Below are positions 40,105 through 54,974 of a stretch of 64,000 bases of DNA, piece after piece; positions within the stretch are counted from its first letter, which is position 1, and every line of letters starts with the position of its first letter. The notes beneath the pieces were generated by a model. The model was not told the origin of the DNA. It did no database searches and worked only from the letters and a program-made list of their open reading frames with translations. Made by a program: the position numbers and the translations under genes. This stretch comes from a virus, in the IMG/VR virus record IMGVR_UViG_3300028833_000003; one strand, written 5' to 3'.

Positions 40105-40133
40105 TTGACAGAACAAAAAAAATATGTTAAAAT
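40105..40133 (+). promoter_or_regulatory. promoter P1
   Basis: TTGACA, 17-nt spacer, TGt+TAAAAT. Confidence 0.7.
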
Positions 40134-40145
40134 AATATAAAGGAG

Positions 40146-40427
40146 ATGATAGCATTGGTTTGGTTATTTGTAATAATTGTCGCGCTGTTACTGCCGATTT
40201 GGTATAATACAATTCCTATACCGGATATGAATGAAGTGAATGTTGTATGGCATCAAAAATATATAGGCTGGACATGGTGCGACAAGGATAAAAATGAACA
40301 CCGCATTGGCCGATTGACTGCGTGGAAAATGTTATTAGATTATCCTGCTCGTTTGGTTGTATATACTTGGAACACAGACGATGATGATGAAGAAGATGAG
40401 GATGATAGGAATACTATTGAATTATAA
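40146..40427 (+). CDS. small membrane-anchored protein with an acidic C-terminal tail
   Basis: 93-codon ORF after P1. AAAGGAG abuts the ATG, so TTG 40155 is an alternative start. Hydrophobic N-terminus, D/E run at the C-terminus, TAA stop. Confidence 0.7.
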   Translation: MIALVWLFVIIVALLLPIWYNTIPIPDMNEVNVVWHQKYIGWTWCDKDKNEHRIGRLTAWKMLLDYPARLVVYTWNTDDDDEEDEDDRNTIEL

Positions 40428-40534
40428 GGAATGCTTTTTCTATTGTTTTCCCAAAAATATGGGGTGGTAAGAGGTTCCAGGCAAAAAAAATTTTTCACTT
40501 TAAAACCAATTAATTCCTGAAACATACGCCCCCC

Positions 40535-40610
40535 ATTTCATTCTCACGCCGGCGCGCCAGCGGCCATGGCGCGCCGAGTTTGCCTGTATTTTTACCCCAC
40601 AAAAAATTAA
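40535..40610. repeat. GC-rich intergenic element, copy E1
   Basis: GGCGCGCC...GGCGCGCC hairpin, then ...TTTGCC...ACCCCACAAAAAATT. Same layout as E2-E6. Confidence 0.5.
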
Positions 40611-40752
40611 TTGTCTATTGTCGCCTTTCTGGTAAATAGCGACGGTGCCCGAAACTTTGACCCCGAGAAAATGTATAAGTAGTGCATACTTATACATTTA
40701 TTTTGTATATAAAAAAAATTATGATACCCCAGAAAAATTTTTAAAAAAAGTA

Positions 40753-40781
40753 TTGACAATAGTAAATTGGTGTGCTATAAT
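40753..40781 (+). promoter_or_regulatory. promoter P2
   Basis: TTGACA, 17 nt, TGc+TATAAT, with an A/T tract upstream. Confidence 0.8.
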
Positions 40782-40811
40782 AAGTACATCAAGAGAAAGG
40801 AGCTAACCGCT

Positions 40812-41141
40812 ATGAAGAACAACGACTGGTGGTCCATCGCGTGCATTATTACATTAGTTATCATCACTGTTATTGTGAGCCTGGGTGTGGGCATGTCAAT
40901 CCAGAAAAGAGACATGGTAAATCGGCTTTACCCCAATGTGGCTTATGTGGTTGAGATAGACCGCGCAACAGATACCCTAACAGTGGAAGACTCAATAGGC
41001 CATCTGTGGAGCGTGCAAGGTGTAGAAGACTACATACTGGGCGACTTGGTAGGCATGGTCATGGACAGTATGGGCACAGACTTAGTGTATGATGATGAAG
41101 TGGTCAAGATGCACTATTGTGGAGGATGGAACGAAGTATAA
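40812..41141 (+). CDS. hypothetical membrane protein (109 aa)
   Basis: ATG lies 9 nt after AAGGAG. The ORF-track start 40767 lies inside P2. N-terminal TM helix. Confidence 0.8.
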   Translation: MKNNDWWSIACIITLVIITVIVSLGVGMSIQKRDMVNRLYPNVAYVVEIDRATDTLTVEDSIGHLWSVQGVEDYILGDLVGMVMDSMGTDLVYDDEVVKMHYCGGWNEV

Positions 41142-41163
41142 TAAAAAAATTTTTAAAAAAGTA

Positions 41164-41192
41164 TTGACATTAATATTCATTTGTGATATACT
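41164..41192 (+). promoter_or_regulatory. promoter P3
   Basis: TTGACA, 17 nt, TGa+TATACT. Confidence 0.75.
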
Positions 41193-41246
41193 TTAATCAA
41201 GGTAAGGGAAGTGCTTACCGGAAACAGTTAAGAGGAGGACATTACA

Positions 41247-41453
41247 ATGACAGTTTATCGCATGTTCGCTACCGAATACAATCATCGCTCCTGTGTCCGC
41301 ATCTTCAAGCCCGAACAGCTTCCAACTGTTAAGCCCTTCCTGCGTCGGTATTGTGCTGAAAGCGCACCAAATACCATTGTTGAACTTGTCAAGTATGTCA
41401 ATGGCAAAGCCGAAAAGTGTGTTTATAAGGTACAGAAACCTGGCAATAAATAA
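41247..41453 (+). CDS. hypothetical early protein (68 aa)
   Basis: AGAGGAGG RBS. The leader contains the hairpin GGTAAG/CTTACC. Confidence 0.8.
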   Translation: MTVYRMFATEYNHRSCVRIFKPEQLPTVKPFLRRYCAESAPNTIVELVKYVNGKAEKCVYKVQKPGNK

Positions 41454-41472
41454 AAAAAATTAAAAAAACCTA

Positions 41473-41501
41473 TTGACAAATCCCGAAACCCGTGTTATAA
41501 T
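41473..41501 (+). promoter_or_regulatory. promoter P4
   Basis: TTGACA, 17 nt, TGt+TATAAT. Confidence 0.8.
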
Positions 41502-41535
41502 GAGCATGTAAAAAGGAAACAGGGAGGACAAACAA

Positions 41536-41721
41536 ATGACTAACATCTTGACAATCATCTTCGTCGCTATCATCGCTTTTGAAGTCTTTGCGGTATCACC
41601 CTTTGGATTATACTTTGCATCAAAAGATTATGACAATGGCAAGCCGATGCGTGTGTTGATTGCGGCGTTTGTCCTTGCCATTCCAGCGATAGTCATTGCA
41701 GAAATTTTAGGAATAGCGTAA
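41536..41721 (+). CDS. small two-helix membrane protein (61 aa)
   Basis: GGGAGGA RBS and two hydrophobic segments. Confidence 0.75.
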   Translation: MTNILTIIFVAIIAFEVFAVSPFGLYFASKDYDNGKPMRVLIAAFVLAIPAIVIAEILGIA

Positions 41722-41729
41722 AAAAAGTA

Positions 41730-41758
41730 TTGACAAAAAGAACGTTGTGTGTTATAAT
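41730..41758 (+). promoter_or_regulatory. promoter P5
   Basis: TTGACA, 17 nt, TGt+TATAAT. Confidence 0.8.
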
Positions 41759-41788
41759 AAGACCATCAAGAGAGAGGAGACTAAGACA

Positions 41789-41989
41789 ATGATGTACGAA
41801 CTGGTTCTCACCTATGACGATGGAGCGATGAAGAAAGAAACTGCCAAACTGCCGAACCTGATGAGCGCATTGGGCATCTACATGGAGGACGACAGCTGGT
41901 GCTACGCACAGATAACGAACTGCCAGACTGGCGAGGTCATCGCCATCTGGGAGAACAACAGCGAGTATGGTGTCACAACTGCGGGCTGA
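41789..41989 (+). CDS. hypothetical early protein (66 aa)
   Basis: ATG follows GAGAGGAG. The ORF-track start 41747 lies inside P5. Confidence 0.75.
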   Translation: MMYELVLTYDDGAMKKETAKLPNLMSALGIYMEDDSWCYAQITNCQTGEVIAIWENNSEYGVTTAG

Positions 41990-41992
41990 CCG

Positions 41993-42095
41993 AAAGGCCA
42001 GCCTTTTTCCTTTCGCCGGCGCGCGCACGAACGTTTGCGCGCCGAATTCGCGCACAACTATACCCAGCACAATTCACGCGCCAAAAAGTGCAGAA
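41993..42095. repeat. GC-rich intergenic element, copy E2
   Basis: ...CGCCGGCGCGCGCACGAACGTTTGCGCGCC...ACCCAGCACAATT... Confidence 0.45.
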
Positions 42096-42125
42096 AAAAA
42101 ATTGCAAAAAATTTTCCTAAAACTA

Positions 42126-42154
42126 TTGACAAGCTCGGCACGGTATGCTATAAT
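42126..42154 (+). promoter_or_regulatory. promoter P6
   Basis: TTGACA, 17 nt, TGc+TATAAT. Confidence 0.8.
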
Positions 42155-42181
42155 AAGTACAACAAAGCAAGGGAGGACACG

Positions 42182-42493
42182 ATGATGATTAACATCCGCA
42201 CTATCCGCAAGCTGAGCAACAACGATGGGCTGACACTCAAAGCAGGTAAGGCTATCACATACAAAACAGGTTATCAGGTAGCAACAGAAGGCATGGAATG
42301 CACCACAGCAGAGCAGGCTATCAAAGCGGTTAAGCAGTACGGCGGAAACTGTGGCGTGTGGTTCTCTGATGGTGTGTATTACATTGACAAGAGCCACAGA
42401 GTAAGCACCAAGCGCGAAGCGCTCACAGTGGGCAAGGCACACAATCAAATCTCTGTGCTTAAATGGTCTAACATGAGTTTGATTTATTGCTAA
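42182..42493 (+). CDS. hypothetical early protein (103 aa)
   Basis: ATG follows AAGGGAGGA. The ORF-track start 42035 precedes the promoter. Confidence 0.75.
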   Translation: MMINIRTIRKLSNNDGLTLKAGKAITYKTGYQVATEGMECTTAEQAIKAVKQYGGNCGVWFSDGVYYIDKSHRVSTKREALTVGKAHNQISVLKWSNMSLIYC

Positions 42494-42511
42494 AAAAGTT
42501 TTAAAAAGTGC

Positions 42512-42540
42512 TTGACAACAACAGCCAAACGTGATATAAT
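42512..42540 (+). promoter_or_regulatory. promoter P7
   Basis: TTGACA, 17 nt, TGa+TATAAT. Confidence 0.8.
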
Positions 42541-42570
42541 TAAGCCATCAAAGAGAGGGAGGACGACACC

Positions 42571-42756
42571 ATGATGAAGCACAGCAGAGAGATGACCGCA
42601 GAACAGCACCTGATGATTCTGGAAGAGCGCTATGAGGTCAAGGTCAAGGGCACAACTATTATCGTTTATACTGATGAAGATGGAGAGACCACGCAGGTAG
42701 TGAAAGATTACATGGTGCATTTTTCGCGCAAGGGTTATAAAATAATTTACAAATAA
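42571..42756 (+). CDS. hypothetical early protein (61 aa)
   Basis: GAGGGAGGA RBS. Confidence 0.75.
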   Translation: MMKHSREMTAEQHLMILEERYEVKVKGTTIIVYTDEDGETTQVVKDYMVHFSRKGYKIIYK

Positions 42757-42759
42757 CCC

Positions 42760-42788
42760 TTGACAAATAGAACCAACGGTGCTATAAT
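42760..42788 (+). promoter_or_regulatory. promoter P8
   Basis: TTGACA, 17 nt, TGc+TATAAT. Confidence 0.8.
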
Positions 42789-42818
42789 AGAGACATCAAA
42801 AGACAGGGAGGCGAAACG

Positions 42819-42983
42819 ATGGCAAAGCGGTACGTAACTCGGCAGTATCTCTGGAATACATTCTACACTTGGGGAGTGTGGGATAAAAAAGAATGTAAAT
42901 GGATTGTTAATGATAGATTGTACAGAAGAAACGTCATAGAAATCGCTGACAAATTAAACAAAGAAGAACAAAAAAAGTATTGA
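42819..42983 (+). CDS. hypothetical early protein (54 aa, below the ORF-track cutoff)
   Basis: ATG follows CAGGGAGG. The TGA stop overlaps the -35 of P9. Confidence 0.65.
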   Translation: MAKRYVTRQYLWNTFYTWGVWDKKECKWIVNDRLYRRNVIEIADKLNKEEQKKY

Positions 42984-43008
42984 CAAATAACCGCGCGTAT
43001 GTTATAAT
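42980..43008 (+). promoter_or_regulatory. promoter P9
   Basis: TTGACA, 17 nt, TGt+TATAAT. Confidence 0.8.
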
Positions 43009-43037
43009 TGAGCCATCAAATGAAGGAGGTCATGCAG

Positions 43038-43247
43038 ATGACTGTTAAGGAACTGATGAAGAAGCTGGCAAAGATGGATCCTGAAATGAAAGTGTGCTTC
43101 CCTGATACTTATGAACAAAACGAAGGTTGGGGCCAATATCCTGAGTATTGCATTGTCGGCGGTGCCGAAGTGGAAGATGGGCGCGTGATGTTGTGGGCAG
43201 GTGAAGACACTGCACGCGAAGAAAAAGATAATGATGAAATCGAATAA
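43038..43247 (+). CDS. hypothetical early protein (69 aa)
   Basis: The second ATG lies 8 nt after GAAGGAGG. The ORF-track start 43008 lies in the -10. Confidence 0.75.
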   Translation: MTVKELMKKLAKMDPEMKVCFPDTYEQNEGWGQYPEYCIVGGAEVEDGRVMLWAGEDTAREEKDNDEIE

Positions 43248-43253
43248 AAAGTA

Positions 43254-43282
43254 TTGACAAATCCTAAAACCCGTGCTATAAT
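43254..43282 (+). promoter_or_regulatory. promoter P10
   Basis: TTGACA, 17 nt, TGc+TATAAT. Confidence 0.8.
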
Positions 43283-43311
43283 AAAAACATCAAATGAAGG
43301 GAGCCACAACA

Positions 43312-43482
43312 ATGAAGAAAGAAATCACTTACACTGAGCAGGAGCTAAAAAAGTGGTTCGAAGAAATGAAAAAGAAATATCCGCACTCGATGGCCGAAGA
43401 ACATTTTAGTTTTGTTGAAATGAACATGTTTGACCATCAATGGCACGAAGAAAATAATTTGAAAATAGTGCTTGACAAATAA
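43312..43482 (+). CDS. hypothetical early protein (56 aa)
   Basis: ATG follows GAAGGGAG. Confidence 0.7.
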   Translation: MKKEITYTEQELKKWFEEMKKKYPHSMAEEHFSFVEMNMFDHQWHEENNLKIVLDK

Positions 43483-43500
43483 TCAAACGTGTGCTATAAT
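43472..43500 (+). promoter_or_regulatory. promoter P11
   Basis: TTGACA, 17 nt, TGc+TATAAT. The -35 overlaps the end of the upstream CDS. Confidence 0.8.
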
Positions 43501-43529
43501 TAAACTATCAAATGAGGGAGGGCAAGGCA

Positions 43530-43754
43530 ATGAAGTTTTGGAAGAAAGAAAACAAAAAGGAAGAGGGATACAAAATTGCTTTTTGTGACACGCCTGATCT
43601 TTCAACTAAGTTTGGTGAATGGAAAGGAACTTTTGATAGTTATTCTTCGGCCGACCATTGCATCAGAATGGGATGGGGAAAAGCTATCAAATCAAAAGCA
43701 ACTGACGCATACGAAATTGATAGTGCATGGCTTGTTATCGAAAAAATTTCTTGA
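43530..43754 (+). CDS. hypothetical early protein (74 aa)
   Basis: ATG follows GAGGGAGGG. Confidence 0.75.
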   Translation: MKFWKKENKKEEGYKIAFCDTPDLSTKFGEWKGTFDSYSSADHCIRMGWGKAIKSKATDAYEIDSAWLVIEKIS

Positions 43755-43773
43755 AAATTTTTTCAAAAAAGGA

Positions 43774-43802
43774 TTGACAAACCCACCAGACCGTGTTATA
43801 AT
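43774..43802 (+). promoter_or_regulatory. promoter P12
   Basis: TTGACA, 17 nt, TGt+TATAAT. Confidence 0.8.
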
Positions 43803-43852
43803 AGAGACACAAAAGGGAAAGGAAAATCCCCAACACCAGAAAGGAAACTACA

Positions 43853-44071
43853 ATGACGAAGATCTACACCGTGGCTGTGATGAACCGCTTTGAGAATGAC
43901 CACACTGAAACCAAGTATTTCACCACCAAAGAAAAAGCCATCAAGTATGCGGAAAAGATCAACGCCAAATACGAAGAAGCAAGAGCTAACAAAAATTATT
44001 TCGAGATGGTCTATCATGTGGCGATGGACTGGGGCATCAAAGAGGTTATGGCCGATGAAGAAGAGGAATAA
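43853..44071 (+). CDS. hypothetical early protein (72 aa)
   Basis: Purine-rich 45-nt leader, GAAAGGAAA RBS. Confidence 0.7.
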   Translation: MTKIYTVAVMNRFENDHTETKYFTTKEKAIKYAEKINAKYEEARANKNYFEMVYHVAMDWGIKEVMADEEEE

Positions 44072-44099
44072 AAATCCTCTTCTTTTTTTCAAAAACCTA

Positions 44100-44128
44100 T
44101 TGACAAATCCCGAAACGTATGTTATAAT
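44100..44128 (+). promoter_or_regulatory. promoter P13
   Basis: TTGACA, 17 nt, TGt+TATAAT. Confidence 0.8.
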
Positions 44129-44157
44129 TAAGCCATCAAATGAAGGAGGACGAAACG

Positions 44158-44310
44158 ATGATGAAGGTTTATCTGGTCTGGTATTTCAACCCTGAGGTGA
44201 GCGAAAATCAGGCGATGCTGTGGGGACTTTACACCACGAAAGAGAAGGCCGAGAAAGCGCTGACTGAGTGCGGATTTCATGGATGGATTAATGAAGAGGT
44301 CGCGGAGTAA
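44158..44310 (+). CDS. hypothetical early protein (50 aa)
   Basis: ATG follows GAAGGAGGA. The TAA sits in the GTAA loop of hairpin 44301-44316. Confidence 0.65.
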   Translation: MMKVYLVWYFNPEVSENQAMLWGLYTTKEKAEKALTECGFHGWINEEVAE

Positions 44311-44378
44311 TCCGCGGCCCTTTGCTTTGGGCCGGTCGCGCGCGGGCGTGCGCGACCGGAGTTGGCCTGCGTAATAGT
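44311..44378. repeat. GC-rich intergenic element, copy E3
   Basis: ...GGCCGGTCGCGCGCGGGCGTGCGCGACCGG..., with a 9-bp stem CCGGTCGCG/CGCGACCGG. Confidence 0.5.
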
Positions 44379-44384
44379 CTTGTA

Positions 44385-44612
44385 ATAATTTTGTAACAAA
44401 TTCGTAACACTTTTGTAACAAAATTGTAATCCCGAAATTGTTACGAAAGTATTAAATTTTTATTACAAAAATTTAATACTTTTTTAATAATATTTAATAA
44501 TTATAAGAAAAGAATAAAAAATCGTGGAAAAATGCGATTTAACATAATCTTAATACTTTTGTAACACTTTTGTAACAAAAAAAGTGATTTTGTAACACTT
44601 TTTTAACAAAAA
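44385..44612. repeat. AT-rich GTAACA/TGTTAC box cluster 1
   Basis: Exact GTAACA at 44393, 44404, 44415, 44561, 44572 and 44592. TGTTAC at 44439. 14-bp perfect inverted repeat AGTATTAAATTTTT/AAAAATTTAATACT at 44448-44480. Confidence 0.8.
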
Positions 44613-44616
44613 ACGC

Positions 44617-44645
44617 TTGACAAGTGCCCGTGTAGGGTGTATAAT
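44617..44645 (+). promoter_or_regulatory. promoter P14
   Basis: TTGACA, 17 nt, TGt+ATAAT. Confidence 0.75.
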
Positions 44646-44694
44646 GAAGTCACAAAAGAGGTCAAGGACAGACCGAAAAACCAGAAGGGGCAAA

Positions 44695-45201
44695 ATGATG
44701 ATGAACCGGAATTACAATCCCGCGTGCGCGATGAACAGCCTGTCTTATATGGTTACCAAATACCACAAGCTCTCCGCGTCTCACATTTACTTCTTCGGTT
44801 TTGAGTTTAACGGCGCTGTTTATGCCTACACCAGCAAGAACCTGCCCCGTAAAGTCCTCCGCACTGAAAAGGCTTCCTCTAAGAACGGCGGTTTCCGGCA
44901 AGTCAAGTTCCGCCCCACTAAGTTCTGGAAGATGGACATGATCCTCTCCGGCAAAGCTATCAAGGTCGCTGATATGGCCGACTTTATGGCTCTTGCTCCT
45001 AAGAACAAGGGTTGCAAGTTTGAAATGTGGGTAACTGAAACCTACACCAGCGAAAAGTGGGTCAAGGATAGCGTCCGGTTTGACAAGGCTGGCGATGTGG
45101 TCATCAACGGCGAAAACGTCCAGGTCAAGTTTGAAGGCGCCGAAGTCATCAACGAACGTTCTCTCCGCAATGCTTACTATGATGCGATGGGGCTGGCCTA
45201 A
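44695..45201 (+). CDS. hypothetical early protein (168 aa)
   Basis: ATG follows GAAGGGG. The ORF-track start 44617 lies in the -35. The TAA lies in the loop of hairpin 45186-45209. Confidence 0.7.
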   Translation: MMMNRNYNPACAMNSLSYMVTKYHKLSASHIYFFGFEFNGAVYAYTSKNLPRKVLRTEKASSKNGGFRQVKFRPTKFWKMDMILSGKAIKVADMADFMALAPKNKGCKFEMWVTETYTSEKWVKDSVRFDKAGDVVINGENVQVKFEGAEVINERSLRNAYYDAMGLA

Positions 45202-45237
45202 GCCCCATCCATCCCGGGCCCTATATGAAAAAAACTA

Positions 45238-45266
45238 TTGACAAAATCCAAATTATATGATATAAT
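45238..45266 (+). promoter_or_regulatory. promoter P15
   Basis: TTGACA, 17 nt, TGa+TATAAT. Confidence 0.8.
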
Positions 45267-45298
45267 CCAAATGTACCAAGAGAAAGGAAGTAATGAGA

Positions 45299-49564: not shown

Positions 49565-49599
49565 TAATACAAATAAGCAATAGAAAGGAAATAAAAGCA

Positions 49600-49815: not shown

Positions 49816-49830
49816 AAGGAAGTATCCACA

Positions 49831-50115: not shown

Positions 50116-50275
50116 AATCATGATTAATTATCTTAACTATGTATTTCCAAACAGAAAATTTAGTAAAGAATATTTAGACATCCTTTACGCTATCTTTATA
50201 AAGGGATATGGCGAAGGCGAACTCGCGGGAGAAATTGAAGCAAATAAATATTGGAGCGAAAGGAAAGAAAAATAA
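50102..50275 (+). CDS. hypothetical early protein (57 aa)
   Basis: ATG lies 5 nt after GGAGGA and overlaps the upstream gene by 14 nt. Confidence 0.5.
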   Translation: MNTYEIMINYLNYVFPNRKFSKEYLDILYAIFIKGYGEGELAGEIEANKYWSERKEK

Positions 50276-50279
50276 ATAA

Positions 50280-50495
50280 ATGTATAATTATAATAATGAC
50301 CCATTTGCGAAGGGCACACAAAAATATCAACAAGAGATAGTCGCAAAAGCATTAAATGACCATTTGCTCAAATGTGTTAAAAATAGTTATTGGTGCGCTC
50401 ATTGCTCTCTAAATCATAGTGGCATCTGCTTTTTTGCAAAAGAATGTTTTGAGAATGATCGAAAATATTATAGAGAAGATGATGAGGAGGAATAA
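50280..50495 (+). CDS. Cys-rich small protein (71 aa)
   Basis: ORF with a weak AAGGAAAG RBS and an acidic C-terminus. Confidence 0.55.
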   Translation: MYNYNNDPFAKGTQKYQQEIVAKALNDHLLKCVKNSYWCAHCSLNHSGICFFAKECFENDRKYYREDDEEE

Positions 50496-50535
50496 ACTTC
50501 TCATTTTGCCCGGGCCAAAAAATTTCAAAAAAGTA

Positions 50536-50564
50536 TTGACAAGCTGAAACAAATGCTGTATAAT
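50536..50564 (+). promoter_or_regulatory. promoter P26
   Basis: TTGACA, 17 nt, TGt+ATAAT. The leader GTAATCAAGAGGAGGTAATCAA is nearly identical to that of P27. Confidence 0.8.
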
Positions 50565-50593
50565 AGCTATGTAATCAAGAGGAGGTAATCAAG

Positions 50594-50746
50594 ATGAAGA
50601 CTTTGAAGGTGCTGGCTGTGATTGGTTGCTTACTGACTATCTGGGGTCTGGTGTGGGGTATCTTCATCAAAGATTTCATTTGGGGTGCGTTTGTTGGTCT
50701 GGCGCTAATAATGCCTTATCTGGTTTGGGGAGATGAGGAAGAATGA
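50594..50746 (+). CDS. small membrane protein (50 aa)
   Basis: AGAGGAGG RBS. Two hydrophobic segments. TGA overlaps the next ATG (ATGA). Confidence 0.65.
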   Translation: MKTLKVLAVIGCLLTIWGLVWGIFIKDFIWGAFVGLALIMPYLVWGDEEE

Positions 50747-50901
50747 AAAGAAGTCTTTACAAGCGTTATGATGATTTAGCCTGCTGGGATTTGGACAAAG
50801 GATGTAGGCGCATCATTGACCAGTCTCGACCTGGTAGGCGTCGCCTGAAAAAGGTTCTTCGGCGTCAAGCGCGCAAGCGGTTAAATCAGCGGGAAGAATA
50901 A
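50743..50901 (+). CDS. small Arg/Lys-rich protein (52 aa)
   Basis: ATGA-coupled to the upstream gene. Confidence 0.5.
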   Translation: MKRSLYKRYDDLACWDLDKGCRRIIDQSRPGRRRLKKVLRRQARKRLNQREE

Positions 50902-50933
50902 CCGCCCGGGCGAAAAAAATTTCTAAAAAGCTA

Positions 50934-50962
50934 TTGACAACCTATCAAGATGGTGCTATAAT
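50934..50962 (+). promoter_or_regulatory. promoter P27
   Basis: TTGACA, 17 nt, TGc+TATAAT. Confidence 0.8.
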
Positions 50963-50991
50963 AAGCATGTAATCAAGAGGAGGTAATCAAA

Positions 50992-51507
50992 ATGACTAAG
51001 AACACTTACGAAGCTCGCGCCTATAAGTTCGCCACTTTCCTTGCTCGTCTGTTTGCTGGTTGCTCTTCTCTGGAAGATTTCATGTGGGCGCTGGACTATT
51101 ACAACGCTACGCACTCTCGCAAACTGCGCTGGGCGCATGGTGTTTCTCGCATTGCGATTATCCGCTCTGACTATGTTATCAAGTTTAACATGGTGCCTGA
51201 TGAAGAATGGGAAGATGGTCGCGCTGGCAACTGCGAAAGCGAAGAAGCGGTCTATGAGCGCGCCTGCGAAGATGGCTTTGAGTATCTGCTGGCTAAAACC
51301 ACTGTTTGCACCATCGAAGAACACACTTTCTCTATCATGCCTCGCATTAACCATGTGAATGATTGGACACGCGACTGGACAGAGTATTGCACTGATGAAG
51401 AATATAACTGGCTGGTGCAAAATGTGAATGACTTGCATGAAGGTAATGTGGGATACAGAAATCGAAAAGTGTGCGTAATCGACTACGCCTGGGACGCGGA
51501 AATGTAA
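50992..51507 (+). CDS. atypical protein-kinase-like early protein (171 aa)
   Basis: Contains DLHEGNVG....VCVIDYA, which looks like a DxHxGN catalytic loop plus a DFG-like IDY, and an upstream VIKF Lys. The TAA lies in a hairpin loop (51496-51512). Confidence 0.4.
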   Translation: MTKNTYEARAYKFATFLARLFAGCSSLEDFMWALDYYNATHSRKLRWAHGVSRIAIIRSDYVIKFNMVPDEEWEDGRAGNCESEEAVYERACEDGFEYLLAKTTVCTIEEHTFSIMPRINHVNDWTRDWTEYCTDEEYNWLVQNVNDLHEGNVGYRNRKVCVIDYAWDAEM

Positions 51508-51595
51508 TCCGCGCCCTTTTGCGTTCGACCGCGCGCTGCCGGATGTGGCGCGCGGCATTTGCCCCACAGCATACCCCACACAATTTTCGGCGCGA
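51508..51595. repeat. GC-rich intergenic element, copy E5
   Basis: ...CGACCGCGCGCTGCCGGATGTGGCGCGCGGCATTTGCCCCACAGCATACCCCACACAATTTT... Confidence 0.5.
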
Positions 51596-51637
51596 AAAAA
51601 AGTTCAAAAAAAACTTCAAAAAAATTCCTAAAACCTA

Positions 51638-51666
51638 TTGACAAGACCAGCGAAAGCGAGTATAAT
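51638..51666 (+). promoter_or_regulatory. promoter P28, with no credible ORF behind it
   Basis: TTGACA, 17 nt, TATAAT. The transcript would start AATAACTGTCAGGAGGG, the same 5' end as P16. About 100 nt before P29. Confidence 0.6.
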
Positions 51667-51768
51667 AATAACTGTCAGGAGGGCAAGAGAACATCCTCTC
51701 CCCTGATGGCACTGGCAAGGACGCTCTGACAAGATGCGGAAACTTCAAAAAAAAGTTTGAAAAACCCC

Positions 51769-51797
51769 TTGACAAAGCGCTGAAAGTGTGATACAAT
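51769..51797 (+). promoter_or_regulatory. promoter P29
   Basis: TTGACA, 17 nt, TGa+TACAAT. Confidence 0.75.
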
Positions 51798-51856
51798 AAG
51801 GATGTCAAATGAAGGGGAGCTGATAAACCCCACAAACAGAGAAAGAGGTAGATACC

Positions 51857-52240
51857 ATGATGAACACCAAGATGACTAACAAGAGCGCTCTGTCCTTTGT
51901 CCTGACCAACTGCGAAGTGCCTGCGGATGTCAAGGAGCGTCTGGAAGCGATGCTGGCTTCCCTTGAAAAGCGTTCTGAGAACGCCAAGGGCAAGGAGCGC
52001 AAGCTGTCTCCCAAGCAGGAGCAGGAGCGCAAGGAGCGTGAGGAGTTCCGCTCCAAGGTGTATGAGACTATGTGTGAGAACCTGAACTTCGAATACACCT
52101 GCAAGGGTCTGGCTGACCTGTTCGCTGTCTCTTCTCCCAAGATGGCGAACGCTCTGACCAAGCTGGTTGAAGCTGGCAAGGTTGAGCGTCTGGTTTCCAC
52201 CACCAACAAGTCCAAGGTGTGGTTCAAGGTGGTAGCGTAA
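51857..52240 (+). CDS. winged-helix-like early protein, paralog 3 of 4 (127 aa)
   Basis: Divergent copy (…LEKRSENAKGKERKLSPKQEQE…SSPKMANALTKL…). The TAA lies in the GTAA loop of the 9-bp hairpin 52228-52249. Confidence 0.7.
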   Translation: MMNTKMTNKSALSFVLTNCEVPADVKERLEAMLASLEKRSENAKGKERKLSPKQEQERKEREEFRSKVYETMCENLNFEYTCKGLADLFAVSSPKMANALTKLVEAGKVERLVSTTNKSKVWFKVVA

Positions 52241-52297
52241 GCTACCACCGCCCCACCTGGGGCGCGCCGGGGCCGAAAAAAAATTTTTAAAAACCTA

Positions 52298-52326
52298 TTG
52301 ACAAAGCTTTAAAACCGCTGTATAAT
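52298..52326 (+). promoter_or_regulatory. promoter P30
   Basis: TTGACA, 17 nt, TGt+ATAAT. Confidence 0.8.
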
Positions 52327-52372
52327 AAACATGTTCCAAGTGAGAACAAAAGAAAGAAAGGATTTGATAACA

Positions 52373-53029
52373 ATGGCTTCTAAGTATAATGACATTTTTG
52401 GTGATACTGAGACGCTGGGTCCGCTGGATAGCCCCATCATTTACAATGGTTACATGCATTGCAGGGAAACAGATGAAGAAGTAAATGCACTGATTAATGA
52501 ATATTTCTTCAACCTTGAAAAATTCGCCACAGCGTATTATGCAAACAAGCGTCCGCAATATTTGGACGATTTGTGGGACAGCAAAATCTTTGCTGAAAAT
52601 TTTTGGGACTTCCGCAAAAAAGTGCTTGCCATGCTCAACCCCAATAAAAAGAACAGATTTTTCGCTCACAATGCGAGATTTGATGTTATGGCATTGAATA
52701 ACACTTGCAGAGCGTTAAGCGATGGAAAAGTGAAATATTTCTTCCCCTATGAAGTTGAAGTTTGTGATACTCTCAAAATGGCGCGTCAAGTTGTCGCAAA
52801 AATGCCCACCTACATCAAATACTGTCAAGAGAATGGATACATGACCAAGCACAAGACGCCCAGGGTTCGCCTGACCGCTGAAATTCTTTACAGATTTATT
52901 ACAAAAGATGAAGAATTTAATGAAGAGCACAGAGGGAAAGAAGATGTTCTGATCGAAGAAAAAATTTATGACTACATCAAGAGACAGCATAAAAAGTGCA
53001 ATCCTGCGCTCTACGCCCGCAAGGCATGA
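52373..53029 (+). CDS. DnaQ-like DEDDh 3'-5' exonuclease (218 aa)
   Basis: ExoI GDTETLG, ExoII FFAHNARFDV and ExoIII EHRGKEDV (H-x4-D). ATG follows GAAAGGA. Confidence 0.55.
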   Translation: MASKYNDIFGDTETLGPLDSPIIYNGYMHCRETDEEVNALINEYFFNLEKFATAYYANKRPQYLDDLWDSKIFAENFWDFRKKVLAMLNPNKKNRFFAHNARFDVMALNNTCRALSDGKVKYFFPYEVEVCDTLKMARQVVAKMPTYIKYCQENGYMTKHKTPRVRLTAEILYRFITKDEEFNEEHRGKEDVLIEEKIYDYIKRQHKKCNPALYARKA

Positions 53030-53081
53030 GCGCAGGCGGCCCGGGCCGAAAATTGTATACAAAAAAAATTTCAAAAACCTA

Positions 53082-53110
53082 TTGACAAGAACCTGAATCA
53101 GCAGTATAAT
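53082..53110 (+). promoter_or_regulatory. promoter P31, with no credible ORF behind it
   Basis: TTGACA, 17 nt, TATAAT. The transcript would start with hairpin GTCCC/GGGAC. About 130 nt before P32. Confidence 0.6.
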
Positions 53111-53239
53111 ATAAGTGTCCCAAGGGGCAAGGGACAGTCAAGGCCAGGTTGCCGAAAGTCAACAGAGACAATACGCATGGACTACAGAAACATTTGGCCA
53201 TTAGCAAACACAATGTGCGAAAAAAGTTTGCGAAACCCC

Positions 53240-53268
53240 TTGACAAAGCCCACAACCTGTGGTATAAT
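53240..53268 (+). promoter_or_regulatory. promoter P32, with no credible ORF behind it
   Basis: TTGACA, 17 nt, TGg+TATAAT. About 120 nt before P33, with no ATG after the AAAGGAAAGGGG. Confidence 0.6.
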
Positions 53269-53391
53269 GCAAATGTAAGATAAAGGAAAGGGGAAAAATA
53301 AAAAGCCACCCCAATCCCAATGCGCAAAAATGCAAGGCTTTGCTTCCATGTGCTTCTTACAAAGTCAAGAAATAAAAAATAAAAAAAGTTC

Positions 53392-53420
53392 TTGACAAAC
53401 ACCACAAAGCATGATATAAT
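53392..53420 (+). promoter_or_regulatory. promoter P33
   Basis: TTGACA, 17 nt, TGa+TATAAT. Leader hairpin TGTTCCAAGAGAACA at 53426-53440. Confidence 0.8.
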
Positions 53421-53468
53421 AAAGATGTTCCAAGAGAACAAAAGGAAAAAAAGAAAGAGGTAATGAAA

Positions 53469-53858
53469 ATGACTAACATCACCAAGAACATGAAGTACGC
53501 TGACATCCTCTCCATCCTGCATGGCGAAAATCCTGCCTATGGTTGCTCCATCGAAACTCTGACCGCTTTCATCGAACATGAAATGGAACTGACCGCGAAA
53601 AAGAACGCGGCTCCCAAGAAGCCTTCCAAGGCTCAGGTGGAGAAGCAGGAGGAGAACAAGGTTCTCGCTCAGACGCTGTTTGAAGTCCTCGCGGCTCATG
53701 GTAAGGATGTAAGCGTCGCGGAAATCAAGAAACTGGATGATCGCTTTGTGGATCTGTCCTCTCCCAAAATCACTGCGCTGTTGAAAATCCTGATGGATGA
53801 AAACCGCATGGTCAAAGATGATAGCGGAAGGGTGGCAAGGTATCAGGTTCTCGCCTGA
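53469..53858 (+). CDS. winged-helix-like early protein, paralog 4 of 4 (129 aa)
   Basis: The second ATG lies 8 nt after AGAGG. Close paralog of 47412..47777. Confidence 0.75.
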   Translation: MTNITKNMKYADILSILHGENPAYGCSIETLTAFIEHEMELTAKKNAAPKKPSKAQVEKQEENKVLAQTLFEVLAAHGKDVSVAEIKKLDDRFVDLSSPKITALLKILMDENRMVKDDSGRVARYQVLA

Positions 53859-53910
53859 TACCTCCGCCCCTCGCGGGCCCGGGCGCGAAAAAAACATTTT
53901 CAAAAAGGTA

Positions 53911-53939
53911 TTGACAAGCTGATTGCAAGGTGCTATAAT
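53911..53939 (+). promoter_or_regulatory. promoter P34
   Basis: TTGACA, 17 nt, TGc+TATAAT. Confidence 0.8.
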
Positions 53940-53967
53940 AGAACCATCGAAAGGAGCTGATGACAGT

Positions 53968-54396
53968 ATGACGAAGGAACAGTACATTGAACAGTATCTC
54001 GATGAGTATGAGCGCAAGCACCCTGATGAACGAATTGATTATGAAAAGTTGCGTGAGCAGGCTGACTGTGAATGGTATGACAAGCAGGTAGATGCAGGCA
54101 AGAAGACTGAATACGATTTGACCAAGGAGCAAGAGAAGGAAGCCAAGAAGGCTCGACAGTATGCCAAGTCTGACAAGGAGCGCAAGAAGGTTGTGCGGGA
54201 GCGCAAGCCTGATGAGGACAAGCGCGAAATCATCGAAGTCATTGCACAGAATTTGAAGCGCGTTTGTACTGAGGATGACCAAATGGCAAAGGAAATCACT
54301 GTTGTAAATCCTGAGCGTGAAGTCACCTTTATTTTGCGGGGCGTTGAATACAGCGTCCAGGTTATCAAGCATAGACCGCCCAAGGCCCCTCAGTGA
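53968..54396 (+). CDS. early protein, family B paralog 2 of 2 (142 aa)
   Basis: ATG follows GAAAGGAG. The TGA lies within hairpin 54384-54402. Confidence 0.7.
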   Translation: MTKEQYIEQYLDEYERKHPDERIDYEKLREQADCEWYDKQVDAGKKTEYDLTKEQEKEAKKARQYAKSDKERKKVVRERKPDEDKREIIEVIAQNLKRVCTEDDQMAKEITVVNPEREVTFILRGVEYSVQVIKHRPPKAPQ

Positions 54397-54432
54397 GGGG
54401 CCGCCCGGGCGAAAAAAAATTTTTAAAAAGTA

Positions 54433-54461
54433 TTGACAAGTGCGCGAATGGATGCTATAAT
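54433..54461 (+). promoter_or_regulatory. promoter P35
   Basis: TTGACA, 17 nt, TGc+TATAAT. Leader hairpin at 54467-54484. Confidence 0.8.
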
Positions 54462-54500
54462 AATGGTGTTCCAAGAGAGAACAGAAAGGGCTGATAAAGA

Positions 54501-54731
54501 ATGTGTGATTGTGTAGCAAGTGCAATGTTAAATGATTACGAGCGACAAGCATGGACCTTTATCGAAAAGGGAACCCGCATCATTAAACTTTGCACAGAAT
54601 TAAGACAATTAAATTGTAACAAAGAAACTGTTGATTTTGCTTTGGTGTGGTTAGAACGCTCAAAGAAAACTCCTGAGGAAATTATTCAAATGGTCAAGCT
54701 CTATCACAAAGATTTGGAGGATGAAAAATGA
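54501..54731 (+). CDS. hypothetical early protein (76 aa)
   Basis: GAAAGGG RBS. ATGA overlap with the next gene. Confidence 0.7.
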   Translation: MCDCVASAMLNDYERQAWTFIEKGTRIIKLCTELRQLNCNKETVDFALVWLERSKKTPEEIIQMVKLYHKDLEDEK

Positions 54732-54937
54732 ATATTGTGGCGCGTGGGTATAGCATTTCACTGAACAAAGAGGAAGAAAATTTTACAAACAAGATAGTCG
54801 ATTTTGTTGATAAGCTGGAAAAGGAAATCTTTGAAGCTGGTGCATTACCTCCTGATGATTTGCAAACAGTTTTTGATGCTTTAAGAGATAACGCCTGCAA
54901 GCTCAGAGACAATGAATTTTATGATGAAGGAGAATAA
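54728..54937 (+). CDS. hypothetical early protein (69 aa)
   Basis: Translationally coupled (ATGA). A GGAGGA lies inside the upstream gene. Confidence 0.65.
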   Translation: MNIVARGYSISLNKEEENFTNKIVDFVDKLEKEIFEAGALPPDDLQTVFDALRDNACKLRDNEFYDEGE

Positions 54938-54945
54938 AAAAAGTA

Positions 54946-54974
54946 TTGACAATCCTTCCCACCTGTGTTATAAT
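54946..54974 (+). promoter_or_regulatory. promoter P36
   Basis: TTGACA, 17 nt, TGt+TATAAT. Leader hairpin at 54980-54996. Confidence 0.8.

Follow-up and report, generated by a model that had tools for sequence, protein, structure and literature searches.

The window that we analysed, 64,000 nucleotides of a 169-kb metagenomic phage genome (uncultured, from the gut; IMG/VR record IMGVR_UViG_3300028833_000003), carries a dense array of near-consensus promoters on its plus strand. We interpret the region as probably an immediate-early gene block of the host-takeover type in a large virulent phage that infects a Firmicutes host, organised as ~30 cassette-like transcription units. Scanning for TTGACA-N17-TAnnnT identified exactly 36 plus-strand sites (P1 to P36), with the first -35 base at 40105, the last -10 base at 54974 and a 17-nt spacer in every case. 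The -10 hexamer is TATAAT in 31 sites (perfect, 12/12), TATACT in two (41164 and 47235), TACAAT in two (45869 and 51769) and TAAAAT in one (40105), which reproduces the count and breakdown given in a preliminary description of this DNA. By chance, the perfect pattern is expected 0.06 times per 64 kb and sites with ≥11/12 matches 0.135 times per 15 kb; the 36 sites, against ~0.1 expected, all lie on one strand of a single 15-kb block.

A position weight matrix built from the array sites gave a leave-one-out median of 48.9 bits, compared with 14.1 bits for the best site elsewhere in the window and 12.1 bits in shuffled sequence. Neither the motif scan nor the matrix scan found an array-like cluster in the rest of the window, where sites with ≥11/12 matches number two on the plus strand (58045 and 62091) and six on the minus strand. 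The promoter array is confirmed, together with its strand bias, and the pattern is not a generic feature of intergenic DNA on both strands. Every interpretive point in the preliminary description that sequence can test was likewise borne out.

Aligning the 36 sites revealed a conserved core of TTGACAA and TRTGnTATAAT, with a pyrimidine at -1 (33/36) and a purine at +1 (34/36) of the predicted start, 7 nt past the -10. The UP-element-like A/T tract of the preliminary description is real and takes an A6-T3-A5 form: relative to the -35 hexamer, A occupies -20 to -15 in 24–29 sites, T occupies -13 to -11 in 22–27, and A occupies -9 to -5 in 29–35, followed by (A/C)(C/G)TA. Strictly defined, the TGn extended -10 occurs in 29 sites, fewer than the ~32 originally proposed. 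Together, these features make up the complete layout of a strong housekeeping-sigma promoter, and the sites are very probably early promoters for host sigma-A. In E. coli, perfect-consensus promoters are not always the strongest, and promoter escape can limit them; “extremely strong” is therefore an assumption for the array promoters.

The information in the sites clusters where RNA polymerase is known to make contact, and the spacer is uninformative (0.04–0.4 bit per position). This distribution bears on whether the sites could be passive copies of one recently duplicated intergenic repeat that is not selected site by site for promoter function. A few cassette pairs are clearly related (spacers 82% identical and leaders up to 93% in the closest), and the array contains gene paralogs; however, no more than 3 of 630 spacer pairs are ≥75% identical, and the hexamers are still perfect in relatives whose proteins are just 27–65% identical. 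The passive-repeat reading is already disfavoured on these grounds, and we consider it barely credible. Recognition by a sigma factor or RNA polymerase of sigma-A-like specificity that the phage encodes or its virion delivers, rather than by host holoenzyme, also appears highly improbable. The motif is the exact housekeeping consensus, down to the UP-like tract and the TRTG -16 element typical of Firmicutes, no scanned window protein matched a sigma factor or RNA polymerase family, and phages equipped with a polymerase of their own generally rely on non-host promoters. Most window proteins are of unassigned function, and nothing speaks directly for this alternative.

The block contains 36 genes (median 75 aa), mostly orphan genes, and 34 have no functional annotation; the exceptions, a nucleotidase-like and an exonuclease-like protein, fit early functions. 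Thirty genes have their own promoter, with 21–76 nt (median 30) from the end of the -10 to the start codon. Shine-Dalgarno complementarity of ≥5 nt precedes 32 genes, in keeping with the strong ribosome-binding sites described earlier, although an exact GGAGG within 20 nt of the start occurs in only 12. Roughly one promoter per small gene had likewise been proposed; this holds for the 30 promoters located directly before a gene, whereas six (45781, 45869, 47235, 51638, 53082 and 53240) have no ORF before the next promoter.

These six orphans could be pure decoys if the array served mainly as a sink that titrates sigma-A holoenzyme from host promoters, with the small ORFs secondary, and the 31 perfect sites, with their UP-like tracts, would be expected to be very effective competitors for holoenzyme. 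We regard this as unlikely. Nearly every promoter lies at a fixed distance from a Shine-Dalgarno site and an ORF, and gene-proximal promoters are retained in relatives; seven phages, for instance, have one before the exonuclease gene. All the orphans stand in tandem upstream of members of a single paralogous gene family, with no terminator between promoter and gene. In a back-of-envelope estimate, 15 kb has room for no more than a few hundred polymerases on each genome copy, compared with several thousand per cell; because this is a small share of the total, titration before replication would be limited and secondary.

Individual promoters, all on the plus strand and perfect unless another -10 is given, are listed here with the genes that they are predicted to drive. 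P1 (40105–40133; TAAAAT), the weakest member, precedes 40155–40427 (90 aa, TTG start) and stands back-to-back with a leftward promoter on the minus strand (40068–40096; TTGACT-17-TATAAT with TGn). P2 (40753–40781; with TGn) and P3 (41164–41192; TATACT) precede 40812–41141 and 41247–41453, respectively. P4 (41473–41501), P5 (41730–41758), P6 (42126–42154) and P7 (42512–42540) would drive 41536–41721, 41789–41989, 42182–42493 and 42571–42756. Upstream of P8 (42760–42788; gene 42819–42983), a hairpin at 42730–42761 ends within the first -35 bases; the -35 of P9 (42980–43008; gene 43038–43247) overlaps the upstream gene’s stop codon, and P11 (43472–43500; gene 43530–43754) overlaps the upstream gene end. 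P10 (43254–43282), P12 (43774–43802) and P13 (44100–44128) are assigned to 43312–43482, 43853–44071 and 44158–44310. P14 (44617–44645; without TGn; gene 44695–45201) has an 11-bp-phased TTGTAACA array upstream, and P15 (45238–45266) precedes a HAD-family gene resembling 5'-3' deoxyribonucleotidase (45293–45736).

The orphans P16 (45781–45809) and P17 (45869–45897; TACAAT) are in tandem with P18 (46013–46041), which precedes the first of four winged-helix paralogs (46118–46492) and has a leader hairpin, GUUCCAAGGGAAC, at the predicted +1. The predicted P16 transcript starts with TGTCAAGAGG (45816–45825), complementary to CCTCTTGACA at 45865–45874 and 46009–46018. P19 (46527–46555) would drive 46582–47055; the orphan P20 (47235–47263; TATACT), with a 5' hairpin on its transcript, is in tandem with P21 (47332–47360), upstream of the second winged-helix paralog (47412–47777). 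P22 (47842–47870), P23 (48490–48518; without TGn) and P24 (48705–48733) precede 47906–48481, 48545–48694 and 48766–49215, the last being a paralog of gene 53968. P25 (49263–49291), with a GCCCGGGC palindrome and a terminator upstream, would drive an operon of ~5 genes (49328–50495). P26 (50536–50564; without TGn) serves 50594–50746 and 50743–50901, and P27 (50934–50962; gene 50992–51507) shares 87% leader identity with it. The orphan P28 (51638–51666; without TGn), whose transcript start, GTCAGGAGGGCAAGAGAAC, is conserved in phAss-1, is followed by P29 (51769–51797; TACAAT) and the third winged-helix paralog (51857–52240). P30 (52298–52326; without TGn) precedes the DnaQ-like exonuclease gene (52373–53029). 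The orphan P31 (53082–53110; without TGn) has a transcript 5' hairpin, GUCCC...GGGAC, and the orphan P32 (53240–53268) is in tandem with its neighbours; P33 (53392–53420) precedes the fourth winged-helix paralog (53469–53858), for which AlphaFold modelled a C-terminal winged helix. P34 (53911–53939) is assigned to 53968–54396, P35 (54433–54461) to 54501–54731 and 54728–54937, and P36 (54946–54974), the final promoter, to 55017–55217 and 55218–55418.

The array closes at a strong intrinsic terminator (55403–55434, plus strand; 14-bp stem, then GTTTTT). Within the array, a canonical intrinsic terminator at 44057–44089 (plus strand; 11-bp stem and T7; z = -3.7) lies upstream of P13, and further terminators are at 41992–42008, 44298–44319, 47066–47087 and 49194–49229 (z = -4.1), the last upstream of P25. 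Six compound boundary elements partition the array into blocks; in most members, a T-rich terminator hairpin is followed by a GC-rich hairpin and then ACCCCACACAATTT. Their GC-rich hairpins are at 40547–40576 (plus strand), 42016–42044, 44332–44359, 47111–47151, 51529–51555 and 55445–55472, the last downstream of the closing terminator. With no more than ~8 interruptions by canonical terminators or compound hairpin elements, the array would be expected to give nested, additive transcripts within blocks. Hairpins at the 5' terminus are enriched (11 of 38 leaders vs 1.8 expected) and may stabilise the leaders.

The array coincides with a TAG-free, standard-code block, an aspect of this TAG-recoded phage that the preliminary description had missed. 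The 36 genes stop with TAA (20) or TGA (16), never with TAG, and none has an in-frame TAG. Genes flanking the block on both sides have in-frame TAG, including 103 in one 4559-codon ORF, and the portal protein was recognised only when TAG was translated as Gln (PHROG 2739, E = 3e-89), indicating that the late genes read TAG as a sense codon. A host promoter does not invariably go with standard code, because the leftward sigma-A-like promoter at 40096 points towards a TAG-containing gene (38972–40057) of the packaging and structural module.

Relatives of the phage include phAss-1 and large siphoviruses of Enterococcus and Bacillus. A Firmicutes-type sigma-A host, as first suggested, is supported by the hosts of the nearest cultured relatives (Enterococcus and Bacillus) and by the Clostridia host predicted for phAss-1, the nearest described genome (PMC10607447). 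We identified the same promoter architecture in phAss-1, Enterococcus phage H1 and five metagenomic relatives (27–84% protein identity), with near-perfect hexamers and diverging spacers and leaders; one relative’s array has 23 perfect sites. Because relatives carry similar arrays, the dense array is characteristic of the clade and not peculiar to this phage. Its clade-wide occurrence had not been noted earlier, and the phAss-1 paper does not mention promoters. In a whole-genome scan of phAss-1, such promoters cluster at the TAG-poor 125–136 kb end, and the TAG-rich structural half has none. Orthologs of the DnaQ-like exonuclease in six relatives have their own upstream promoter with ≥11/12 matches.

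Gene content is hyperplastic: any one relative has 1–9 of the 36 genes (paralogous hits counted), and gene order and even strand vary. For example, homologs of genes 48545, 49831 and 50743, upstream of the exonuclease here, are downstream of it in relatives L008 and L012. Such variation raises the possibility, which we hold only tentatively, that the cassettes are mobile and supply short stretches of homology at which recombination could shuffle, duplicate and remove orphan genes. The PeSL cassette of T4-like phages (PMC2839356, PMC4122927), overlooked in the preliminary description, is the precedent and comes nearest among the concepts already described; these cassettes would be its Gram-positive analogue. 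Promoter cassettes are the sole DNA-level similarity between non-orthologous positions (55–135 bp, 72–85%), some cassettes have spacers or leaders 77–93% identical, and the four winged-helix genes and one further pair (48766–49215 and 53968) form paralogous gene-plus-cassette modules. Against L009, an 89%-identical relative, identity is ~80–86% until, close to the P31 cassette and the exonuclease gene's 3' end, it jumps to 93–98%. However, no recombination junction was mapped within any cassette in this one close pair, mean spacer identity between cassettes is just 0.40, so that near-identity is short (~20–30 bp), and the stem-loop, one of the defining parts of PeSLs, accompanies only ~14 of the 36 cassettes and lies upstream of the promoter rather than inside it. 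Cassette mobility is compatible with driving expression and complements the immediate-early interpretation.

Under the immediate-early interpretation, each cassette would comprise an optional hairpin or terminator at the upstream gene end, the UP-like tract, a perfect -35, the 17-nt spacer, the TRTG extended -10 with a perfect -10, and a transcription start at a purine 7 nt further on. The leader, short and stereotyped, would then run into a small gene; it would either lack structure and place a strong Shine-Dalgarno site close to its 5' end, or begin with a 5'-terminal hairpin. Because host sigma-A holoenzyme would recognise all cassettes once the DNA enters, every early protein could be made at a high level within seconds to a minute, regardless of gene position; one promoter alone would need several minutes to transcribe 15 kb. 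Because the block is entirely standard code, with TAG neither sense nor stop, a naive host could translate it before TAG-to-Gln suppression begins for late genes.

The array is an extreme case of a known phage strategy, fast expression of the first genes through host RNA polymerase, and not a new mechanism. The identical scan, taken as the maximum per 15 kb on one strand, counted 31 perfect and 36 near-perfect sites here, 0 and 3 in the SPO1 terminal redundancy, and 0 and 4 in T5, bearing out the suggestion that the array resembles and probably exceeds these systems. It is ~3 times denser than, and far nearer consensus than, the SPO1 terminal redundancy, T5 and the RB49 PeSL cassettes.

An exact search for TTGACA-N17-TAWAAT returned 32 plus-strand matches between positions 40105 and 54974, compared with an expectation of 0.06 per 64 kb. 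When the pattern was relaxed to TTGACA/TAnnnT with spacers of 16-18 nt allowed, exactly 36 plus-strand promoters were found in 40105-54974 (the array; P1 to P36 from left to right). This is the number given in the preliminary description, and the -10 elements had the composition listed there: TATAAT at 31 sites, TATACT at two, TACAAT at two, and TAAAAT at one. The -35 hexamer is perfect and the spacer is 17 nt long in 36/36 sites, and the -10 hexamer is perfect in 31/36, with one mismatch in the other five. At a threshold of at least 11 of 12 hexamer bases matching the consensus (≥11/12), 0.135 sites are expected in a Markov-shuffled copy of the array region; outside the array, the rest of the window contains only two such sites on the plus strand and six on the minus strand. 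We also ran the position-weight-matrix scan of the window that had been proposed as a check, and it upheld the restriction of the 36 sites by strand and region. Leave-one-out scores of the 36 sites had a median of 48.9 bits, whereas the best score elsewhere on either strand was 14.1 bits and the maximum in shuffled sequence was 12.1 bits; therefore, the pattern is not generic to the intergenic DNA of this genome, where it would have appeared on both strands, but is confined to one strand and one block. Two details changed on recounting. The TGn extended -10 is common, as had been reported, but strict TGn occurs at 29/36 sites and not at about 32; the claim of strong Shine-Dalgarno (SD) sites stands for the 32/36 genes with SD complementarity of at least 5 nt, but exact GGAGG precedes only 12/36. 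The original observation is confirmed, and its interpretation is essentially right.

We built a profile by aligning the 36 sites at their -35 hexamers. Positions -20 to -5 relative to the hexamer carry a tract of the form A6-n-T3-n-A5 (0.35-1.26 bits per column), which can be likened to the E. coli UP consensus; with its phased A- and T-tracts at about -40 to -57, it is a putative UP element. The trinucleotide (C/G)TA lies directly 5' of the -35, and an A follows TTGACA in 33/36 sites. Upstream of the -10, the columns of T-R-T-G-n-TATAAT are occupied by T in 19, R in 34, T in 30, and G in 29 of the 36 sites, which is the Firmicutes -16 region, or extended -10 (TRTGn); the -16 TRTG motif is typical of Bacillus promoters. 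A pyrimidine (-1) is found six nucleotides past the -10 in 33/36 sites, and a purine (+1) seven nucleotides past it in 34/36. The 17-nt spacer, by comparison, carries 0.04-0.4 bit per position, and only 3 of 630 spacer pairs reach 75% identity. RNA polymerase contacts its promoters through the alpha C-terminal domain at the UP element, sigma region 4 at the -35, region 3 at the -16 TRTG, region 2 at the -10, and the Y(-1)R(+1) start. The information profile is the one expected from selection on these contacts and not from a recently copied repeat, and an origin of the array by passive duplication of a repeat is contradicted by this profile across the 36 sites. Hexamers, spacing, purine start, and co-orientation with the genes all agree with housekeeping sigma-A/sigma-70 promoters, and on these sequence features we predict the sites to be such promoters; recognition by a phage-specific sigma factor is unsupported.

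The promoters are closely tied to small genes, and we refer to a promoter with its UP-like tract, leader, and SD as a cassette. For 30 of the 36 genes, 21-76 nt (median about 30) separate the end of the promoter's -10 from the start codon. Several -35 hexamers share bases with the preceding gene's stop codon, as in the intergenic regions 42757-42818 and 42984-43037. The leaders fall into a few stereotyped classes. Leaders of one class are short, lack structure, have the form AUCAAAUGAAGGAGG, and place the start codon 23-24 nt from the predicted +1; those of another class have a hairpin exactly at the predicted +1 (e.g., GUUCC-AAG-GGAAC or GUCCC...GGGAC). Such 5'-terminal hairpins occur in 11/38 leaders, where 1.8 would be expected and 300 shuffles gave at most 6, and they are enriched in the two closest multi-gene relatives as well. 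In B. subtilis, mRNAs are stabilized by a 5'-terminal stem-loop and also by a strong ribosome-binding site (RBS) near the 5' end, and because of this precedent we infer that the leaders would act as modules for mRNA stabilization and enhanced translation.

The window lies within a metagenomic contig of 168,974 bp (ENA ERZ27257202 k141_292341). A megablast search of the 15-kb array region against 50,697 phage records gave no match, and neither did a tblastn search with a 603-aa ORF; an IMG/VR search with the DnaQ-like exonuclease encoded behind P30 (52373-53029) gave no confirmed match, and an exact-pattern scan of viral contigs for the UP and -35 motifs gave mostly single, uninformative matches. 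Homologs of the exonuclease in metagenomes number 988. Among described genomes, phAss-1, which has been placed in the "Caudoviricetes code 15 clade," is the closest, and cultured relatives are Enterococcus siphoviruses of about 140 kb and Bacillus siphoviruses of about 165 kb. phAss-1 and Enterococcus phages H1, EF1, and VRE9 are true relatives (GenBank OQ749652, OP534061): aa identity to phAss-1 and the Enterococcus relatives is 27-33% for the exonuclease and about 38% for the N-terminal half of the product of ORF 32726-34063, a prohead protease according to the relatives' annotations. The phAss-1 paper does not mention promoters (PMC10607447), and we found no relevant promoter description in the literature on the Enterococcus relatives.

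We compared the array with phAss-1, Enterococcus phage H1, and seven metagenomic loci around exonuclease homologs of 43-84% identity. All have one near-consensus promoter per small gene on the coding strand, in most cases with a 17-nt spacer and TGn and usually accompanied by the A/T tract. Perfect and ≥11/12 sites on the coding strand number 10 and 24 in 21 kb of phAss-1, 8 and 19 in 25 kb of phage H1, and, among the metagenomic loci, 9 and 19 in 16 kb (L012), 9 and 16 in 12 kb (L007), 6 and 17 in 21 kb (L010), and 23 and 35 in 21 kb (L014, which has nine further perfect sites on the other strand). phAss-1 and H1 thus share the early-block architecture of one near-consensus 17-nt-spacer promoter per small gene, but they have fewer perfect sites than the array, and stems often flank the -35 hexamer there. 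In six relatives the exonuclease ortholog has its own ≥11/12 promoter upstream, with different spacers and leaders. Because the same design is present in all compared relatives, the array is a conserved, selected trait of the clade and not a peculiarity of the window.

On this evidence, the reading with the best support is that of an immediate-early block where every small gene would have its own predicted maximal host-type promoter, leader, and RBS. With these parts supplied gene by gene, unmodified host machinery using the standard code could make all early proteins at once. By our own estimate, transit of 15 kb at 40-80 nt/s would take several minutes, a delay that per-gene promoters would abolish. 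The preliminary description had also raised titration of RNA polymerase by so many perfect sites. As the primary role of the array, such a polymerase sink is unlikely: the promoters are tightly coupled to ORFs, gene-proximal promoters are conserved, and a single 15-kb array would by our estimate hold only a few hundred polymerases.

The immediate-early reading places the array beside known phage systems. [quoted passage not shown] Like that module, the array covers 13-15 kb of a large Firmicutes phage and is made up of small genes without known ancestry, predicted here to be early, with sigma-A-type promoters carrying an extended -10 and strong RBSs, and from its sequence it would be a cluster of the SPO1 type. 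No protein homology to SPO1 gp37-gp60 was detected in the PHROG search of the 36 array proteins, and SPO1, unlike the window phage, has no TAG recoding. Regulatory details of the SPO1 module are reportedly to be found in Stewart et al. 1998. Phage T5 also has many strong host-type promoters before short early operons (T5 annotation NC_005859), strength being predicted in the case of the array, and it has an early deoxyribonucleotidase-type enzyme (dmp) comparable to the product of array gene 45293. However, T5 has about one annotated promoter per 1.3 kb, lacks any perfect 12/12 site in its first 50 kb, and belongs to a Gram-negative system. The strength of the T5 pre-early and early promoters is said to have been described by Gentz and Bujard in 1985.

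We applied the same scan to all of these phages, taking the maximum number of perfect and ≥11/12 sites on one strand in any 15 kb. The window has 31 and 36, the SPO1 terminal redundancy 0 and 3, the first 50 kb of T5 0 and 4, and two 50-kb stretches of the T4-like phage RB49, hyperplastic regions included, 4 and 12-13. Over both strands, the SPO1 terminal redundancy reaches 0 perfect and five ≥11/12 sites, compared with 31 and 36 on one strand in the array. The suggestion that the array resembles, and probably exceeds, SPO1 and T5 is therefore correct for density and consensus match, a comparison that does not extend to promoter strength.

The conceptually closest description in the literature is the promoter-early stem-loop (PeSL) cassette of the T4-like phages RB49 and phi1 (PMC2839356; PMC4122927). 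PeSLs number about 50 per genome, each placing a stem-loop and a consensus sigma-70 promoter, preceded by an AT-rich tract, in front of an orphan gene in a hyperplastic region; they have been shown to be very strong promoters, terminators, and mediators of modular shuffling (PMC2839356; PMC4122927). In the array, too, the intergenic regions repeat a cassette made up of an AT-rich tract 5' of the -35, a consensus housekeeping promoter, an SD, and a start codon; the cassettes lie directly before small orphan genes, in the region of the genome that is most plastic, and relatives show a shuffled gene order. The array differs in belonging to an unrelated siphovirus of a Gram-positive host, in being about three times denser than the RB49 PeSLs and much closer to consensus, and in the position of its hairpins. 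In RB49, the stem-loop is inside the spacer (GGGGATC...GATCCCC), whereas the array spacer is unstructured; a stable hairpin lies within about 45 nt upstream in about 14/36 cassettes, straddling the stop codon of the preceding gene, and none is in the spacer; only about 6-8 of these hairpins resemble canonical terminators. The array cassettes have the promoter, AT-tract, and orphan-gene features of PeSLs, and the stem-loop only in part.

Gene content and order differ strongly among the relatives, and the cassettes are the sole DNA similarity between non-orthologous positions. When 51813-54296 was aligned to an 89%-identical relative (L009), the 3' end of the exonuclease gene separated a left part of about 80-86% identity from a right part of 93-98%. 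This step is suggestive of a recombination boundary close to the cassette of P31, the next promoter (53082). Including this mosaic boundary, the relatives offer suggestive evidence of cassette-mediated shuffling, with no junction mapped inside a cassette.

Of the 36 early proteins, 34 lack a functional annotation, and the other two are a HAD-family 5'-3' deoxyribonucleotidase-like protein (gene 45293; PHROG 2643, E = 5e-11) and the DnaQ-like exonuclease; a search of all 36 array proteins against PHROGs found no match to a host-takeover protein of known function. There are two paralog families: one with four members (46118-46492, 47412-47777, 51857-52240, and 53469-53858), each preceded by two or three tandem promoters, and one pairing 48766-49215 with 53968-54396. 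The structure model of one member of the larger family has a mean pLDDT of 84.6, with values >90 in the C-terminal 65 residues, and a PDB fold search showed that its winged-helix domain resembles the DNA-binding domains of ArsR/SmtB, MarR, and BlaI with modest significance (E from 1.7e-3). A PDB sequence search with these paralogs gave only sub-threshold matches, as did other sequence searches, all in the same direction. A C-terminal winged-helix domain is thus predicted for the four-member family with moderate support from the model. The family has 68 homologs; every one comes from a metagenome-type source, and none carries a functional name.

The array also differs from its surroundings in genetic code. 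Under the standard code, the leftward 40 kb are nearly devoid of long ORFs; when TAG is read as sense, ORFs of 4559, 2326, and 1094 codons appear, with 103, 38, and 27 in-frame TAGs, respectively. These reading frames reveal a full-length portal protein (PHROG 2739, E = 3e-89), recognizable only once TAG is translated as Gln, as well as a virion structural protein and a terminase-like protein. Pfam searches with the largest code-11 ORFs gave nothing useful because TAG recoding truncates the late ORFs; with TAG translated as Gln, Pfam still gave nothing, whereas PHROGs matched. Genes with TAG as sense occupy 1-40057 (minus strand), 56339-58798 (minus strand), and 60867-61340 (plus strand). The 36 array genes have no in-frame TAG and end in TAA (20) or TGA (16); with TAG-containing genes on both sides, the array thus coincides with a standard-code block, and the genome, with late TAG codons and TAG-free early genes, is TAG-recoded in the manner of code 15. 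There is a clear compositional break between the two compartments: G+C is 39-47% in 40001-56000, where GC and AT skew are positive, and 31-35% in most of the TAG-recoded late region (1-26000). No suppressor tRNA (anticodon CTA), nor any other tRNA gene, was found in the 64-kb window. A leftward promoter (TTGACT-17-TATAAT with TGn; 40068-40096, minus strand) stands back-to-back with P1, with 8 bp between the two -35 hexamers. Six in-frame TAGs are present in the gene that this leftward promoter faces; thus, a host-type promoter stands before a recoded gene in at least one case.

Late-gene TAG recoding is common to the window and phAss-1. According to its published description, phAss-1 has TAG in 41 ORFs, most of them late, as well as suppressor tRNAs, and Clostridia are its predicted host (PMC10607447). 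In the complete phAss-1 genome, we found the promoters concentrated at 125-136 kb, the TAG-poor end, and absent from the TAG-rich structural half. The genome has three suppressor tRNAs with anticodon CTA, and the tRNA cluster with tRNA-Sup-CTA lies on the strand of the early promoter array, downstream of it (L138 102-114 kb; L140 62.4-62.7 kb; record coordinates).

Between six promoters (P16, P17, P20, P28, P31, and P32) and the promoter that follows each of them, there is no ORF. All six are tandem upstream promoters of the four winged-helix paralogs at 46118, 47412, 51857, and 53469; thus, two or three perfect or near-perfect promoters feed each paralog. The 5' end of the P16 transcript, TGTCAAGAGG (45816-45825), is the exact reverse complement of CCTCTTGACA, which consists of CCTC plus TTGACA, i.e., the -35 hexamer with its upstream context, and is present at P17 (45865-45874) and P18 (46009-46018). 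Their pairing would form a 10-bp terminal stem (-24.4 kcal/mol, z = -4.4), and pairing of the P16 type recurs in phAss-1 and in metagenomic relatives (L001:7138, L014:9437), in one case via a G-U wobble. We infer that the orphan transcripts are long structured alternative leaders and not separate genes or decoys. Rfam gave no match in the whole window at gathering thresholds and none at E ≤ 1 in 40-56.5 kb, so these transcripts and the leaders are outside every described RNA family. We rejected small protein genes headed by the orphan promoters, as these are followed only by a two-codon mini-ORF (after P17) and weak TTG ORFs. The mini-ORF (ATG GTC TAA, 45923-45931) is preceded by the Shine-Dalgarno-like GAAAGGGGA.

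Canonical intrinsic terminators are few, about six within the array or at its end. They are 41992-42008, 44057-44089 (z = -3.7), 44298-44319, 47066-47087, 49194-49229 (z = -4.1), and 55403-55434, which closes the array. Many intergenic regions in the first 3.5 kb are just 47-86 nt long, without space for a terminator. With so few terminators and such short gaps, transcripts are expected to be nested and additive within a block. The array is split into blocks by six related compound elements (40547-40576, 42016-42044, 44332-44359, 47111-47151, 51529-51555, and 55445-55472), most of which consist of a T-rich hairpin, then a GC-rich hairpin of 10-12 bp, and then ATTTGC...ACCCCACACAATTT; the GC-rich hairpins show some compensatory changes. 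Because convergent promoters flank similar GC hairpins in phAss-1, we considered minus-strand promoters inside the six boundary elements, but this candidate was dropped, as no convincing -35/-10 pair occurs there in the window. Hairpins in the second half of the array often span the stop codon of the gene before them and are followed by a palindrome, GCCCGGGC, and then an A-tract. The GCCCGGGC/CCCGGGC motif has 10 sites (17 strand matches, compared with 1.2 expected), all of them within 45213-54410 and 18-42 nt 5' of a -35; this variable distance argues against a promoter element.

A broader reading combines a Gram-positive counterpart of PeSLs, marking of a code compartment, and coupling through orphan 5' RNAs; we offer this combination tentatively and consider it rather improbable as a whole. 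In its first part, self-sufficient, near-identical modules may both express orphan genes and serve as recombination handles, keeping the early block in flux. In the second, the array would mark the borders of a standard-code compartment that a naive host expresses before TAG suppression unlocks the late genes. In the third, 5' RNAs from orphan promoters before the four winged-helix paralogs would pair with the next -35 (TGTCAAGAGG/CCTCTTGACA), and this pairing would couple promoter read-through, RNA stability, and regulator dosage.

The array belongs to a known class, that of phage early-promoter cassettes and host-takeover-type blocks, within which its purity and density are unusual. What is new is the recognition of this class in a clade of large gut Firmicutes siphoviruses, some of them TAG-recoding, and value is added by the clade-wide conservation, the coincidence with a TAG-free compartment, and the tandem structured leaders before winged-helix paralogs. 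The array provides a simple sequence mark of immediate-early genes in this large uncultured clade, TAG-recoded members included. Together with TAG usage, it divides the genome into "host-readable" and "phage-readable" parts, a split through which the temporal logic proposed for stop-codon recoding can be tested directly. The array also yields candidates for proteins with host-takeover or anti-defence roles, namely its roughly 36 orphan products, and the 36 natural, near-isogenic promoter-leader variants are usable in Gram-positive synthetic biology. The T4-like, Gram-negative design of one consensus promoter per orphan gene is found in more extreme form in these unrelated Gram-positive siphoviruses, and this recurrence suggests convergence toward a single solution.

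A TTTTGTAACA-type motif forms two arrays, at 44372-44617 and 55488-55750, in which it recurs at an 11-bp spacing (one helical turn) and in both orientations. One is directly 5' of P14, and the other is just past the terminator that closes the promoter array. TTGTAACA occurs 17 times, compared with 3.6 expected, and 10 of these occurrences are inside the two motif arrays, which look like candidate binding arrays for a DNA-binding protein. GTAACA runs of a similar kind precede some promoters in two of the metagenomic relatives (L010 and L012). The adjoining non-coding stretch (55750-56310) contains several copies of (A)CCCGACCGG(GTTTTCCA), with 3-4 aligned per repeat family, and a repeated CATATGC(G/A)CC; it may be a replication origin. 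A nearby gene (58193-58798) has a weak match to a DnaD-like helicase loader (PHROG 186, E = 5e-4).
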